This document shows positions 28,328 through 51,511 of a stretch of 64,000 nt of DNA, piece by piece; the stretch's first letter is position 1; every line of letters begins with the position of its first letter. This DNA is from Candidatus Pacearchaeota archaeon (GTDB lineage: Archaea; Nanobdellota; Nanobdellia; Pacearchaeales; GW2011-AR1). The DNA is taken from positions 13,231 to 77,230 of the forward strand of contig JACPLT010000001.1 in the NCBI GenBank assembly GCA_016186365.1. Direction: 5' to 3'. The translations under genes and the position numbers were made by a program. Below the pieces are notes generated by a model. It saw nothing but the letters and a program-made list of their open reading frames with translations, was not told the origin of the DNA and ran no database searches.

Positions 28328-31300
28328 ATGGCAACAGCAAAAGAAGAGATAAAACTTAAAGTAGTAGAAGCACTGCAAGATGATGCGTATAAGGGGATTG
28401 CAAGAGTTGACCCCGAAATAATGAGAAAGTTAGGGCTGAAAAGAGGAGACATTGTTTCTATTAAAGGGAGCAGGGAGAGTGTTGCGATTGTTGATAGAGC
28501 GTATCCTGCGGATATAGGCGAGAATATAATAAGAGTTGACGGAATTATAAGAAAAAATGCTAAAACTGGAATTGGAGAGGTGGTGGTTGTAGGACGGGCA
28601 GATATTAAAGAAGCTAAAAAAATTACAATTGCACCTGCACAAAAAGGAATCATGGTTCAGGGAGACCCAGAAGCACTAAAGCCAGGATTATTGGGGAGAG
28701 CAGTTGTCAAGGGAGATATAGTTGTTTTGGGCGGGACAGCAAGAAGAAGAGATATAATGTCTGATATGGATTTATTTAATGATATTTTTGCAGAAGCTTT
28801 TTCTGGAATGGGTGGAATGGGAGGATTTGGAGGATTTTCAGCTTCAGGAACTAAATTTATGATTGTTTCATGCAATCCCACCCAGCCTTGTATCATAACT
28901 GAAAATACTGAGATTACGCTTAATCCTAAGGCCATGGATATTTCAGAAGATAAGGTTTTTGAAGTTACATATGAAGATATAGGGGGATTGGATGAAGAGC
29001 TTAAAAAAATAAGAGAGATGGTAGAACTGCCATTAAAACATCCAGAGATATTTGAAAAGCTGGGAATAGAGCCGCCAAAAGGAGTGTTGTTGCACGGTCC
29101 GCCAGGAACAGGAAAAACTTTACTTGCTAAAGCAGTTGCAAATGAAGCAGAAGCGAATTTTATCTTATTGAATGGGCCTGAAATAATGAGCAAGTTTTAT
29201 GGGGAGAGTGAAAAAAATTTAAGAGATAAATTTGACGAAGCTGAAAAAACTGCGCCTTCAATTATTTTTATTGATGAAATTGATGCTATCGCTCCAAAAA
29301 GAGAGGAAAGTTATGGGGAAGTTGAGAGAAGGGTTGTTTCTCAGTTATTGACTATGATGGATGGGCTAAAATCAAGAGGGAAAGTTGTGGTAATTGGAGC
29401 AACTAACAGACCGAATTCAATTGATCCTGCTTTAAGAAGGCCCGGAAGATTTGACAGAGAGATAAGCATTAATGTTCCGGATAAAAGAGGAAGGCTGTCT
29501 ATACTTAAAATTCATACGAGAAATATGCCTATTGAGCCTCCAATTAAAAAGGATTATCTTGAAAATCAGATACAAACACTATCGCAGAAAAATAAAGAGC
29601 TTGAACTAGTTATTAAATTAGAAAATGATAGCGAGCTAAAAAAACAAAAAATGCAGGAATTTTTTAACAATAAAGAAGAGATAAATTATCTTCAAAAAAT
29701 CAGTGATAAGTTTAGCGGGGAAGAGAAGAAAGATGAGAAAACATCCAAAGATTTAACACATAAAGAACAAGAAACTGCAATTAATATTTTTAGAAATGGA
29801 GTGTTAGATGAACTCGCAGCAATAACTCACGGATTTGTCGGGGCAGATTTGTCTTCTTTGGCTAAGGAGGCTGCGATGAATGTTTTAAGAAAAATACTTC
29901 CTAAGATTAAGATGCAGGACGGAGAAGAAATTCCTAAGGAGATTCTTGAAAGTTTGAGAGTGACTAAGAAAGATTTTATGGAAGCTTTGAGAACAGTTCG
30001 GCCTTCTGCTATGAGAGAGGTTTTGGTTGAAACTCCCAATATTAAATGGGATGATGTTGGAGGGCTGGGTGATATTAAGCAGGAATTAATAGAAGCTGTT
30101 GAATGGCCGATGAAATTCCCAGGAAGTTTTACAAGAATGGGGATAAGGCCCCCAAGAGGGATATTATTATATGGGCCACCAGGAACAGGAAAAACTTTAT
30201 TAGCTAAAGCAGTTGCAAAGGAGAGTGAAGCTAATTTTATTCAGGTTAAGGGGCCTTCTTTGCTGTCAATGTGGGTTGGCAAAAGCCTTCCCTATAATGA
30301 AGAGTTGATTGTTAAAGAAAATGGGGCGGTAAAAAAGATGAAAATAGGGGAGATAGTTGAGAAAAGAGCAGACGTGGAAATTCTTGCTTTTGACAAGGAT
30401 AAAAAGATAGCATTTTCCAGAATAGACGATTATATCAAACATAAATTAGATACTAATTTACTTGAAATAACCACAAGAACAGGGAGAAAAATAAAAGTAA
30501 CAGATTATCACTCTTTATTTTCATTTATCAACGGCAAATTTACAGATATCCCTGCAAGCCATTTAATAGCTGGAGAAAGTTATATTGCAATCCCTAAAAA
30601 TTTGAATCTTCCTAAGGATAGGATAAAAAATGTTAATTTATATAACTATTTTAAAAATGATGAAACTATATTTTTAGCCAATATTAAAGATTATCTTATA
30701 AGAGCAAAAAAAATATTGGGATTGGGAAGAACTGCAGAATTAATGGAAGTTTCTAAAAAGTATTTGGCAGATATAATCCTGAAAAATCTTCCTGTAAAAA
30801 TAACTAATTTTGAAAATTTGATAAACGAGGCAAAATTAGCTCTTGATTTTAATGATATAAAAATTAAATTGAAGGGAAGCATAAACGAATATCCTGCAAT
30901 ATTAAATATAGATAATGATTTTTGGAGATTAATCGGGTTATGGGTTGCAGAAGGGGATTTTAACAGTTCTACAGTTAGAATTCACAATACAAACAATGAG
31001 ATTAGGGAGGATATAATCAGAATTTGCACAAAATATAAGTTTAGTATATCTGAAATGCCTACTTGCATCACTATAAATTCGTTATTTTTACAAAAAATAT
31101 TGGAAAGGGTGTTTGAATTATTCTCTGGCTCGGATGCTAAAAGAGTTCCTGCTTTATTATTTACTTTAGACAAGGGAAGCAAGGCTAATTTTTTGAAAGG
31201 ATATTTCAGCGGTGATGGCTCAATTTATCCTGCTGAAAATGGAAAATTTAAAATAGAAGCAAGCACCATAAGCAAAGAACTCGCTAACGATTTGATGTAT

Positions 31301-32374
31301 TTATTTTTAGATTTTGGGATTGTTGCCACTTGCTATGAAAAAGAGCTAAAAACCGGAAGCACTTGTTATAGAATCAGCATTTTAGGAGTAAGAAATTTTG
31401 AGAGATTTAGCGAGATAGGTTTTATAGAAAATCAGAAAAATAAAAGAATTATGGATTATGTTAATTCTAGAAAGTGGAATAGGTCTGACGTTATTCCTTT
31501 GTCTGGCGAGCTTTATGAGCTAGCTTCTCAAAGTCAAAGTGTTTATTCAACTAATAAGTCTATAGGAAAAGAGGCGCTAAAGAACATGCTGATTTTGATA
31601 GACAAAGATAAAAGTAGATATAAAGAATATTGGGAATTAGTTGAAGGAGATTTATTTTTTGATTTAGTTAAAGAAGTAAAAATAATTAATGCTGAAAATT
31701 ATGTTTATGATATATCTGTTCCGGCAGGGCAGAATTTTATTGCTGGTTTTGGAGGAGTAATTGCCCATAATAGTGAAGAAGGTGTCAGAAAAATATTTGA
31801 GAGAGCAAGACAGGTAAGTCCATGCATCATATTTTTTGATGAAATTGATTCTCTTGCTTCTAGGAGAGGCGCGGATGCTGGGGGAGGAAGAGTTACTGAG
31901 CAGGTGTTAAATCAGTTGTTAGCTGAAATGGATGGATTGGAAGAGCTGAATAATGTTATTGTAATTGGGGCGACTAATAGGCCGGATATGCTTGACCCCG
32001 CTATATTAAGGCCTGGAAGATTTGACAGAATTTTATTGGTTTCAACTCCTAACAAAGAAGGAAGATTGTCTATACTTAAAATTCACACAAAAAATATGCC
32101 TCTTGCAAAAGATGTAGATTTAGATAAGATATCTGAACTGACTGAAGGTTATGTTGGTGCGGATTTGGAGAGCTTGGCTAGAGAGGCGGCTATGCTTGCT
32201 TTAAGAGAGAATAAAGATGCAAAAGAGGTTACAAAGAAAAATTTTGAGGATGCCATGAAAAAAGTTAGACCTTCTGTAAGCAAGCAGCTGATTGATAAAT
32301 ATAAAAAGATAGAGGAAGATTATCTTAAGAATGCCAAGGCGGCGATTGAGAAAGAGGCGCAGTATTTAGGATAA
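28328..32374 (+). CDS. cdc48: CDC48/VAT AAA+ ATPase (852-aa extein plus intein)
   Basis: N-domain, two AAA modules (GPPGTGKT twice, [21 protein letters not shown]). Confidence 0.96.
30284..31771 (+). mobile_element. 496-aa intein with LAGLIDADG homing endonuclease
   Basis: WVGK|SLPY...TDYHSLF...IGLWVAEG...LKGYFSGDG...VYDISV...AHN|SEEG. Confidence 0.93.
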
Positions 32375-36267: not shown

Positions 36268-36741
36268 CTATTTTTTTCTTCTGTATGTTCCTGCTCTTAT
36301 ATGTCTTAATATTTTATATCCTGAAACCTCTTTTGCAGGGAGATATTTTGCAGGATGTTTTTCAAAATCGGGATTTAATAATCTGTTTAATCTTCCTGTT
36401 AATCCTTTTTTTCTTTCTAATACCCATAAATCAAAATTTCTTGAATCCTCTGCCTTGCATACTAATCTGCTTCCTGATTTTATTAAATTATACCATTCTT
36501 GAGATTCTCCTTCATAAGAAGAATCTTCTTGATTTTCCTGGTCCATAGAGAGAATTAGAGGCTCTGAAAAAGAGCTTTCATCAACTTTGACTGATAAAAG
36601 CTTCTCATTTCTTTTTCCTTCGGATAATACCTGATTTGCACTACTAACTTTATAATACACATAACTGGCAAGAGTTTGTTTTGCCATTGTTTTTATAAGT
36701 ATCTTTGGCTTATAAGGATTGCTGTGATTAAAAACAATCAA
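36268..36741 (-). CDS. Hypothetical protein
   Basis: ORF downstream of polB; start uncertain (MAKQ...). Confidence 0.55.
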   Translation of the reverse strand: MIVFNHSNPYKPKILIKTMAKQTLASYVYYKVSSANQVLSEGKRNEKLLSVKVDESSFSEPLILSMDQENQEDSSYEGESQEWYNLIKSGSRLVCKAEDSRNFDLWVLERKKGLTGRLNRLLNPDFEKHPAKYLPAKEVSGYKILRHIRAGTYRRKK

Positions 36742-39284
36742 AATCCAGAAAGCTTTGTCTGCTTTCTGCCTTCTGCGAGCTCTTTGATATTTATGCTGAA
36801 AACATCGAAGATGTTTTCTACTGCCGGAATAATCTGATGATTAAGATAATAATCCAGATTATATTCCCCTTTTTCATCTGGAAGCTTGACTTTTTCTCTG
36901 ACAAGGGATTTTTTCTCGCGGGTTTCTGCAATAAAATAATGAATTAACATTCCGATATCTACGGGCATTCCTACCTGCTTCATTTTTTCTGCTGCTATTA
37001 CATGAGGAGTTATTGATTTATATTCTGAAAGAGGTTTTTTTAGCTGGGTTCTAATCATTATTTCTTCTCTCTGCACTTTTCTTTCTTTTAAATTTTTGAT
37101 TGTTTTCTTGACTAGTTCCAGAGCTTCTTTTTCATTACCTTGCTTTAATATTAATTCTAAAACTTTGCTCTGAAGCGCTCTTGCAAGAGGACACCAATCT
37201 CTTCTTACGGTTTCAAATCCGCGGATTTTCATCTTATTATTTTCGGTAATTAAAGCATATTTTTTTTTCGCGCCAGTGTCTGTTGTTTTTTTGGCAACCC
37301 AGATTCCTCTTTTATAAAAATCTTCTAATTCGAGAGCCATAATTCCAGGAAGATTTTTGTTTATTTTTTCTAGAAGTTCCAGGGCGCGTTCTTTTGTTTT
37401 ATTTTCTAGGATAAATGCAATTGAATCTGTATCTGAATAAACAACCTTGTATTCTGCTTTCTGTATTTTTTCTATAACCTCAAGAATATTTTTTCTTGAT
37501 AGTGCGGCTGTGGAAGCTGCAGCTTCTCTGCAATAATATCTGGCTCCAAAAAATCCCTGATAGCCATAGGCTGCATTTGCAATCAGTTTATAAGCATTGC
37601 TTCTAGCTTTTGTTATGGGGGAGGGATTTTTCTTGTATTCGGATTTATATTTTTTTCTTTTTTCTATTATTTTTTCTAATAAGTCTGGAAAAAATCCTTT
37701 TAATTTTGAGAAATATACAAGCCCTTCTTCTCCTAAATTCACTTCTAATGCATTTTTTTCTTTTTTCTTTAAAAATGTTGAAAGCGATAGATTATAACTT
37801 ACTATCACAGAAGAATACATACTGGTAAAATCAAAAAATGCGAGGTTTTCATATAATCCTGGAGTTGGCTGGAAAACAAAAGCTCCTTCATATTTTCCGA
37901 GATTTCTTCTTTTTCCTATTTCTTCATGAATTGGGCGTTTTTCTGCAATTTCATTATATTCATCAAGATTATGGAGAATATAACTTTCTACCAGCTGGGA
38001 CATGCCATTTCTTGTTATGTCAAAAATAGGCTCTTGAATAATCTTGCTTATCTCCAGGACATCGGGCCAGAGTTTTTCTGCAAGAAGAAAAGTTATCTTT
38101 GAGTCATGAAGATTATAATCAAAGAAATCTTTCCAATCTTCCTGACTTAGCTTATTCTGGGGTTTGAATTCAAACTCTTTTTTTCCCAATCCCAATAATT
38201 CTGAAGCAACTTCATCTAAGCCGAGTGTTTCTGACTGAAGATATTGTGAGAAGATGGTTTCTATAAATCTGAATAAGTCAATATGAACAATGCCAAAGAT
38301 ATTACCTGAGGATATCCTGCCTCTTGCAAATGAGGGCTGGGAGTTGTCTAATCCTAGGGAGAGTTTTATTCTATTGTATTCTGCTCTTGCTCTTAAATAA
38401 GGCAGGTCAAATCCGTCTGAAAAATATCCTACTAGGAAGTCAGGAGAGAGCTTTTTTACGTATTCTACAAATTTTTCAAGCATTTCTGCCTCGCTTGAGA
38501 AGCATTCTACGAAATCCTGCTTTTTTGTGCATTTTTTCCAGGTAAGAACTTTTTTATAGAAAATTCTGTTGGCGGTATCCCTCTTTTCGCAGAATTTTCT
38601 ATCTGGATAATTCTGGAACAACGTGCTAGGATTAACAGAATTATCCATAAAAGATTCAGAATAAAGAGAAATCATCAGTATTTCACCCTTTCCTATTTCA
38701 AATTCCTCTGCTTCTATATCAAATGCTAATATTTTTGGATTGAATTCTTTATCTGGGATTTTTTCTATTTTTTCTGCCATAATGCAGAAATCCGCATCAA
38801 TTGAAGTTATTCCTGAGAAATCCGAACTTCCTGTGAGAATTTCTCCTTCTGCAGAATACCATTCCATTGGATTAATCTCTTTTTCTTTTATGTATTTTGT
38901 AATTAGGGGAATATCATACTCTCTTCTGGCAATAATTTCTTTGTAATCTAACAGCTCTGCAATTTTATGGGAATCTTTATGATTTGTTATAAAAATTTTG
39001 AATGCTTTTACTTGTTTGCCTAGGAAATTTTTTTCTTCTAAAGAGATTTTTTCTACTTTTGTTGTTCTTGATGGCAGTTCTATCCTCTTTTTTTCTATCT
39101 CTTTTTTTAGCTCCTCAATCTTTTTATCGCCTGTTTTTTCATCTAAAATCGCATAGAATGAGGCAGGGAAATAATCAATTATACACACTCTTTTATTCTC
39201 TTTAGTCCTGCCTATCATTATTACATAATTTTTTCCATGATAATCAATATAGTCATAATATATGGGGGTGAATTCTAGTTTCAT
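36738..39284 (-). CDS. polB: Family B DNA polymerase with a 31-aa hairpin-derived insertion
   Basis: ExoI FDIE, ExoII FDLPY, DFTSMYSS, KLIANAAYGY, YSDTDS, KKKY, RGFETVRRDW, C-terminal PIP-like QTKLSGF. Confidence 0.96.
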   Translation of the reverse strand: MKLEFTPIYYDYIDYHGKNYVIMIGRTKENKRVCIIDYFPASFYAILDEKTGDKKIEELKKEIEKKRIELPSRTTKVEKISLEEKNFLGKQVKAFKIFITNHKDSHKIAELLDYKEIIARREYDIPLITKYIKEKEINPMEWYSAEGEILTGSSDFSGITSIDADFCIMAEKIEKIPDKEFNPKILAFDIEAEEFEIGKGEILMISLYSESFMDNSVNPSTLFQNYPDRKFCEKRDTANRIFYKKVLTWKKCTKKQDFVECFSSEAEMLEKFVEYVKKLSPDFLVGYFSDGFDLPYLRARAEYNRIKLSLGLDNSQPSFARGRISSGNIFGIVHIDLFRFIETIFSQYLQSETLGLDEVASELLGLGKKEFEFKPQNKLSQEDWKDFFDYNLHDSKITFLLAEKLWPDVLEISKIIQEPIFDITRNGMSQLVESYILHNLDEYNEIAEKRPIHEEIGKRRNLGKYEGAFVFQPTPGLYENLAFFDFTSMYSSVIVSYNLSLSTFLKKKEKNALEVNLGEEGLVYFSKLKGFFPDLLEKIIEKRKKYKSEYKKNPSPITKARSNAYKLIANAAYGYQGFFGARYYCREAAASTAALSRKNILEVIEKIQKAEYKVVYSDTDSIAFILENKTKERALELLEKINKNLPGIMALELEDFYKRGIWVAKKTTDTGAKKKYALITENNKMKIRGFETVRRDWCPLARALQSKVLELILKQGNEKEALELVKKTIKNLKERKVQREEIMIRTQLKKPLSEYKSITPHVIAAEKMKQVGMPVDIGMLIHYFIAETREKKSLVREKVKLPDEKGEYNLDYYLNHQIIPAVENIFDVFSINIKELAEGRKQTKLSGF
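38556..38648. repeat. 93-bp in-frame double-hairpin insertion in polB
   Basis: atagaaaattctg...cagaattttctat and tggataattctg...cagaattatcca. Confidence 0.8.
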
Positions 39285-51017: not shown

Positions 51018-51308
51018 ATGAAAAAAGATAATACTCATCAAGAGCAAATAGAAAGATGGGCAGAATATGTAAAGAATAATGAAAATTGGAGGCAAATTCA
51101 TACTAAATTTATTGACATGTCAAAAATTGGTTTATGCAAGCTCCTTGTTTTAACTCGTGAGAAAATAAAATCAATTTTTGAGCATGCTCAAGAACCAGTA
51201 TGGCGTACACGCCATACACTTCAGTGTATGGTTCTTGACAGCCAATTTGAGATTGCAAGGAAATTTTATAAAGATCTTGAGAAAACAGCAAAAGGAAGGG
51301 AGATATAG
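51018..51308 (+). CDS. Small hypothetical protein containing a 41-aa hairpin-element insertion
   Basis: ...HTKFID[MSKI...MVLD]SQFEIARKFY...; AAGGAG SD. Confidence 0.65.
   Translation: MKKDNTHQEQIERWAEYVKNNENWRQIHTKFIDMSKIGLCKLLVLTREKIKSIFEHAQEPVWRTRHTLQCMVLDSQFEIARKFYKDLEKTAKGREI
51118..51240. mobile_element. 123-bp two-module hairpin element, in-frame
   Basis: tgtcaaaaattg...caatttttgagca plus tgctcaagaacca...tggttcttgaca; ttgaca duplicated at 51112-51117 and 51235-51240. Confidence 0.82.
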
Positions 51309-51511
51309 AGAACTGCGTAGCTTGTATGACATTTATCCAGCAGTTCTCTATCTGTTTAACTGCACTAAATTGTCATCTAACTAATGCAGTTATCCATATT
51401 AAAAAAATTGAGGGAGGAAAAATTAAAAAATGACAAGTTATGATGTTATTGAAGTGTCAGAGATTTTCGCTGAAGCTCTAATCCCTGAACACTTCCAAAA
51501 CAAGGAGCAAA

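Follow-up and report, generated by a model that had tools for sequence, protein, structure and literature searches.

Selfish palindromic repeats that lie inside genes are already known from Rickettsia, where the accessible parts of the relevant sources (Ogata 2000 via PMC2229807, PMC10969869 and PMC2996958) describe the RPEs as palindromes placed in frame in conserved genes, guanylate kinase among them, and usually in unstructured segments. A review table, likewise accessible in part, lists them with 105-150 bp, stems that run from end to end and a target duplication that is uncertain. Palindromes fused into protein genes have also been described for an archaeon, Methanocaldococcus jannaschii (Suyama 2005 via PMC2996958 and PMC2229807, in the portions available). 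As regards mobility, the available portion of PMC2229807 depicts RUP of Streptococcus pneumoniae as an IS630-Spn1-related MITE of ~100 bp that targets TA, has ends like those of a resident IS630, is proposed to move in trans, contains stops in every one of its six frames and lies mostly between genes. The same portion covers two further families. CIR of Caulobacter and Brucella measures ~110 bp, has a terminal TA, a GANTC motif and two independent stem-loop arms on a linker, and is described there as not in genes and with no identified transposase. Correia/NEMIS of Neisseria is a bacterial element with a TA duplication, ~24-bp ends and a single end-to-end stem, and it comes in a short form that is fused in frame to ORFs and a long, intergenic form with ~50 extra internal bases. 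Further sources for comparison, again accessible in part, were PMC3184786 and PMC3718332.

The window analysed here, by which we mean the whole stretch of 64,000 nucleotides, contains a palindromic insert in the gene for a family-B DNA polymerase. The host appears to be a DPANN archaeon, because the named homologues of this PolB mostly carry Candidatus Pacearchaeota labels. In our preferred reading, to which we assign a probability of about 0.88, the insert is a TA-flanked MITE with IS630-like ends that was moved in trans and has been kept as a tolerated surface loop. The unusual part is its double-hairpin build, in which each end is paired with an internal copy of itself. The features of the gene, the insert and a second copy in the window are as follows:

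36738..39284, minus strand: polB, family-B DNA polymerase, the host gene (848 aa; PF00136 and PF03104)
38556..38648, minus strand: 31 in-frame codons, residues 213-243, at a beta-turn of the exonuclease domain between strands 202-210 and 242-248 (pLDDT <50 at 213-238)
38555..38556, no strand: left TA of the target-site duplication (T precedes the element in 41/41 copies)
38557..38647, plus strand: 91-bp double-hairpin MITE, polB copy, defined by profile family and stem covariation
38557..38582, plus strand: left terminal inverted repeat, ~26 bp, IS630-end-like; the outer 12 bp belong to stem 1 and the inner 14 bp lie in loop 1
38590..38615, no strand: internal abutted pair of 12-bp partial ends (arm, TC, arm), which closes both hairpins and was not seen in autonomous IS630
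38622..38647, minus strand: right terminal inverted repeat, ~26 bp; the outer 12 bp belong to stem 2
38648..38649, no strand: right TA of the target-site duplication (A follows the element in 40/41 copies)
51305..51397, plus strand: second MITE copy in the window, AACTGC-arm type, which gives the TAG stop of the small ORF 51018-51308

The first-pass annotation had reported 31 extra in-frame codons in polB and two adjacent perfect stems of 13 and 12 bp, and both observations hold. Stem 1 joins 38556-38568 to 38590-38602 (perfect 13 bp, 21-nt loop), and stem 2 joins 38604-38615 to 38636-38647 (perfect 12 bp, 20-nt loop). The span of 93 bp that it gave, 38556..38648, is right for the insert, which encodes a peptide running MDNS...RIFY (residues 213-243); the element proper is likely 91 bp long (38557-38647), with the 93 nt made up of the element and one duplicated TA. 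Since a T precedes and an A follows the 93-nt copies throughout the genome (41/41 and 40/41), the repeat itself measures 91 bp and has a TA dinucleotide on either side. Removing 93 nt from polB or from the adenylate kinase gene (adk), or 92 nt from a hemerythrin gene that carries another copy, restores the frame and leaves a single TA. The gap of 31 aa that had been expected in an alignment of PolB orthologues is present: the turn is insert-free in 115 of the 119 best homologues (1460 were found), and the segment is shared as conserved protein by none of the 119. The other four have unrelated, shorter inserts at this place, of 2, 6, 6 and 17 aa. The longest of these, in homologue P0009, is a different 17-residue insert in the same exonuclease turn, and together with the two homologues extended by 6 residues it makes the turn look permissive. 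An assembly artefact at polB was ruled out, as contigs of 4/4 groundwater runs cross the insert with zero differences and with no skipping joint; the runs come from one study, and two of them may be the source sample. No empty polB allele was present in the contigs of these four runs, and contigs drop rare variants.

What does the insert do to the polymerase? The AlphaFold model of PolB has a mean pLDDT of 85, and its main low-confidence stretch is the insert, with residues 213-238 below 50. The surface-loop location proposed earlier is thereby supported by a model that puts the insert in a low-confidence turn between two strands, and the insertion site aligns to a 3-residue gap at 165-169, a short turn of 3a2f, which is the top solved archaeal PolB match. 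The insert is thus predicted to lie at the surface, in a disordered beta-turn. The acidic motif residues D189, E191, D293, D394, D485, D618 and D620, which we take to be catalytic in PolB, are invariant across 70 sequences including this one. Root-to-tip distance ranks 12 of 107, which indicates no rate increase; the terminal branch ranks 104, a length to be expected where close kin are lacking. The 31-residue loop that the insert would add is likely harmless, and its effect on PolB itself is probably small. The earlier description of the host as a core replication gene is an overstatement: the large subunit of PolD is also encoded in the genome, and PolB may for this reason not be the main replicase.

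A search of the genome contigs for loci related to the polB insert returned one locus, and an iterated profile search found 46 matches in the 967-kb genome (an 82%-complete assembly), 42 of them full length, on many contigs and between unrelated flanks. Two identical copies occupy different flanks. With a covariance model built from 32 copies and 28 candidates scored per genome, the family was found in 19 of 149 other genomes of the host's family and in 15 of 149 genomes drawn from the order, 2 of these outside the family, the two genome samples overlapping. Full copies in these relatives have TA at the left end in 26 of 27 cases and at the right end in 27 of 27. The 91-bp element is therefore an IS630-derived MITE: it is short, lacks a transposase, is multicopy at unrelated sites, duplicates TA and has terminal inverted repeats that resemble IS630 ends. 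The proposal that a palindromic element, as RPEs do, adds in-frame peptide here is borne out by the same observations, in that the insert is a multicopy mobile repeat, the orthologues are without the segment and the predicted location is a surface turn. Among the papers listed by a literature search that had most subscription journals beyond its reach, none described the 91-bp family. A MITE census that reports a Woesearchaeon with high MITE density (10.1101/2024.01.18.576219, accessible in part) may include the family, unnamed, in its supplements.

Several other repeats and genes came to light in the course of this survey. The ORF that ends in the second copy of the window (51018-51308, plus strand) has 96 aa, and its homologues in genomes G011 and G006 have ~65 aa; its ~42 extra residues match other places of its own genome and apparently derive from another, unrelated hairpin repeat that was inserted in frame. 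A genome-wide stem scan also showed other repeated hairpin families, several of them at contig ends. Across the MITE family, 13 ORF stop codons lie within or at 10 copies, which is expected if the TA of TAA or TAG is targeted. Elsewhere in the window, a CDC48-like AAA ATPase of 1348 aa (28328-32374, plus strand) has a long internal segment, which looks to us like an intein.

For the polB insert, folding z-scores range from -5.4 to -6.3, as RNA or as DNA, and equally stable shuffles numbered 0 of 200. In a set of 32 copies, from which nested and partial copies, one of 96 nt, one of 85 nt and two duplicates were left out, the ends pair with the internal arms in 93% of 800 cells, and double changes number 128 compared with 40 in shuffles, counts that are inflated by kinship among the copies. 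The terminal inverted repeats are imperfect, pairing end to end in 71% of cells, and the double hairpin is better conserved than the rod that end-to-end pairing would form. Fold-back arms are absent from the ends of autonomous IS630 elements (best match 5-9 of 12). The centre of the MITE resembles two abutted IS ends, with TC where TA would be expected in most copies of the genome. Arm type switches jointly in all four arms, across both hairpins, and the types match different IS630 clades. Among the private stem changes of 25 copies from six subfamilies, we counted 33 uncompensated singles versus 1 compensated pair, with private changes per site of 0.017 in the outer arms, 0.03-0.05 in the internal arms and 0.05-0.08 in the loops. 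From this pattern, we infer that mobile lineages generate or maintain the stem pairing and that it erodes once a copy has landed.

Two variants of the build were also observed. Solo single-hairpin forms of ~45 bp, flanked by TA, occur twice, at C12:11341-11388 and C18:5135-5181. Six MITE copies carry a nested double-hairpin unit of 51-52 nt at the central junction, and related units exist elsewhere in the genome. The copies with the nested unit are:

C42:34108-34251
C5:1733-1875
C33:9112-9254
C32:14639-14780
C34:7334-7478
C38:36813-36956

Two rival explanations concern the stems. One is that the covariation is a by-product, without function, of replication template switching that repairs the arms, a mechanism that can create and maintain such stems (PMC8794818, accessible in part). 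Arms of 12-13 bp and loops of 20-21 nt are compatible with it, and the armless ends of autonomous IS630 mean that the arms had to arise by some fold-back event. In-place repair, however, predicts private compensated changes, of which there is the single pair noted above, and the joint change of arm type in all four arms of both hairpins likewise speaks against it. Template switching may explain the birth of the arms, not their upkeep, and we consider it unlikely as the account of the covariation.

A second alternative is that the hairpins are an RNA element selected at polB, such as an mRNA stabiliser, a processing site or a ribosome pause, so that the copy would be a domesticated one. The polB copy is indeed one of just 2 among the 32 in which both stems are perfect, although 14 of its 93 nt differ from those of the nearest sibling; its 7 private changes are all in loops, with 0 in 50 stem positions, and this combination could reflect selection on structure at the polB site. 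Many MITE copies are also probably co-transcribed, given the 13 ORF stops that fall within or at 10 of them. On the other hand, the stems generally decay in place across the 25 copies, the donor may have brought five of the 7 private changes, which lie close together in the left inner end, and none of the 119 PolB homologues shares the insert. Nor did any Rfam family match at its threshold; four matches at E<=1 were all far under it, and a known RNA family was rejected. On balance, we regard a domesticated RNA element as quite improbable.

Where copies are found and how they are read bears on the preferred reading, in which the MITE would be translated and tolerated. TA sites lie inside ORFs of at least 100 aa in 75% of cases (60,962/81,242), and MITE copies were found inside genes in 5 of 46, a count that comes from a crude ORF call plus Pfam on 24 chosen ORFs and may miss other broken genes. 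In-frame copies number four: one in polB, one in adenylate kinase and one in each of two paralogues of an unknown gene, which share their flanks. They represent three independent events. The copy in the adenylate kinase of contig C20 (L017:308-1009) is in frame near the C-terminus and is missing from 119/119 adk homologues; one of its TA flanks has changed at a silent position, which suggests that this insertion is older. All in-frame copies read one antisense frame, which is open in 8 of the 25 full copies of length 3n; the same 25 copies have two further frames open, in 17 and 15 cases. Mean hydropathy is -0.9 (hydrophilic) in the frame that is used versus ~+0.7 (hydrophobic) in the two that are more commonly open. 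These figures are suggestive of a preference of in-gene survivors for the hydrophilic antisense frame, all four belonging to one subfamily in which two frames are open. A hemerythrin gene is split by a 92-nt copy of the TGAC type, with ends like the resident IS630 (L020, C19:11251-11342), out of frame and with stops; no empty allele of this site was present in the contigs of the four runs, in which rare variants are dropped. None of the six copies with the nested unit was found in a gene. Among the copies examined in relatives (overlapping sets of 30 and 10), there was no convincing in-frame insertion, and we left out of the count a long open frame that runs through one G250 copy (L197) and resembles an antisense shadow of other genes.

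A profile search with the inserted peptide, which sees the polB frame alone, matched 29 proteins among 1.84 billion representatives, two of them from the same genome, and of 14 others that were read at least 5 carry the peptide internally, among them such unrelated proteins as a PIN-domain and a transposase-like protein. In P0254, a PIN-domain protein from another source, the peptide interrupts an N-terminal motif, and in-frame insertion therefore need not always be harmless. Six sister copies have no excess of changes at third codon positions, and the even spread of their differences over codon positions indicates that the inserted peptide is not conserved as protein.

These observations also weigh on the intron that the first-pass annotation had raised as an alternative, in which the 93 nt would be removed by the tRNA splicing endonuclease or another structure-guided route and PolB would have normal length. 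A tRNA intron endonuclease gene is present in the genome, the element is strongly structured and its flanks pair in some folds. Yet strict bulge-helix-bulge tests passed in 0 of 252 cases over 42 copies, with 1 relaxed pass at an intergenic copy, and on the sense strand of polB none of the 4 central pairs forms in any of the three registers. Copies avoid genes, the three independent in-frame events are all stop-free multiples of three in one frame, and the lone frame-shifting in-gene copy found, that of 92 nt, breaks the hemerythrin gene. Because copies are mostly outside genes and no strict bulge-helix-bulge is present, we consider an intron very improbable. The distribution of copies is what translation would produce.

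As to what moves the element, the genome encodes one intact IS630 transposase (DDE_3, 337 aa, contig C37), in a TA-flanked element of 1095 bp including both TA. The left end of this resident IS630 ranks first of 160,717 TA-start sites outside MITE copies when scored with a weight matrix made from MITE ends. Together with the resident element, 80 related loci of metagenomes yielded 69 IS elements with both ends, 60 of them distinct. Their end types are mainly AATTCTG, which forms a clade in a quick version of the transposase tree, and AACTGC, and these are also the two commonest arm types of the MITE. The rare TGAC type of the resident IS is common to four MITE copies of this genome, the best of which matches at 23/26 (left) and 18/26 (right). 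Over 70 distinct copies and 60 IS630s, the inner 14 bp of each MITE end, that is, the part in the loop, match IS ends at 19.2 of 28 positions versus 11.9 after letter shuffling, and much of the loop variation is thus IS-lineage end sequence. Left and right MITE ends point to the same IS above shuffled pairs (18.6; 0/500), by a small margin, and end polarity (37 vs 20) and arm-type agreement (24/70 vs 18.2) give weak signals, the copies being kin. The polB copy fits the ends of the resident IS poorly (13/26 and 11/26) and those of the AATTCTG clade better; its mobiliser is likely an IS630 of this clade that is not in the 82%-complete assembly. A search of 150 family genomes at E<=1e-20 found a relative of the resident transposase in one of them, and of 5 MITE-rich genomes one has DDE_3, in the form of a remnant that contains a stop. 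By analogy with RUP, the MITE most likely owes its movement to IS630 transposases acting in trans. A REP/REPIN-like unit moved as single-stranded DNA by a hairpin-recognising IS200/IS605 (HUH) transposase, to which the double hairpin with covarying stems and 4 Y1_Tnp matches in the genome might point, is hardly credible against the TA duplication, the 26-bp IS630-like ends with their clade-specific arm types and a genome-wide end scan in which no MITE-like end ranked near the three full Y1 matches, the mark of REP/REPIN being ends common to an IS200/IS605-type transposase locus and not to a DDE element.

Under the IS630 reading, and on the analogy of RUP, an IS630 transposase would likely have cut and pasted the 91-bp element in trans into a TA of polB, where the element plus one TA adds up to 93 nt and keeps the reading frame. 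The copy would then likely persist as a hydrophilic surface loop of 31 residues, presumably translated and neutral and hence tolerated. Since stems decay without compensation after landing, the role of the internal arms likely belongs to the mobile phase, in which they would serve as additional partial ends for the transposase or form a fold-back structure, and not to the polB site. More speculatively, the double hairpin might be a reusable hitch-hiking scaffold, whose internal end pair would work in the transposition of an element otherwise too short and whose four arms and both inner ends would be re-tuned, repeatedly, to the incoming IS630 lineage; one such tuning might have opened the hydrophilic frame, from which DPANN enzymes would repeatedly acquire loops of 31 residues. 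We put this forward as a tentative and rather doubtful extension.

Taken together, RPE-style loop insertion extends to DPANN archaea, and to a DNA polymerase and adenylate kinase. The present analysis contributes how copies behave inside genes, how subfamilies correspond to IS clades and how the stems decay. The birth and spread of coding palindromes become testable with an enzyme of 337 aa and a substrate of 91 bp. The four-arm build follows several IS630 clades and begins to decay only when a copy has been inserted, which poses the question of how very short MITEs arise and stay mobile.

Among the described systems, the element shares with RUP its size class, the TA target, the resident-IS630-like ends and the proposed movement in trans. 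Unlike RUP with its stops in all six frames, some subfamilies here have an open frame that is used in genes, and the ends fold onto internal copies of themselves, with end types that track several IS630 clades. The likeness to the RPEs is drawn from their description, and the element is not filed as an RPE member. It too is a palindrome in frame in conserved genes, and the adenylate kinase copy parallels the RPE in guanylate kinase, but it is archaeal and measures 91 bp, and, in contrast to RPEs as the accessible parts of the reviews describe them, its TA duplication is clear and its transposase family can be identified, with a candidate transposase. The coding palindromes of M. jannaschii, also compared by description, share the archaeal setting and the fusion into protein genes in a different lineage. 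Correia/NEMIS resembles the element in its TA duplication, its end length and the in-frame fusion of its short form, and the six copies with the nested unit parallel its long form, but two local hairpins here take the place of the single stem. With CIR, the element has in common the approximate size, the terminal TA and the two independent arms, which here copy IS630 ends. In sum, the element works like RUP for mobility and like the RPEs or the M. jannaschii palindromes for coding insertion, and CIR is the closest two-arm fold.
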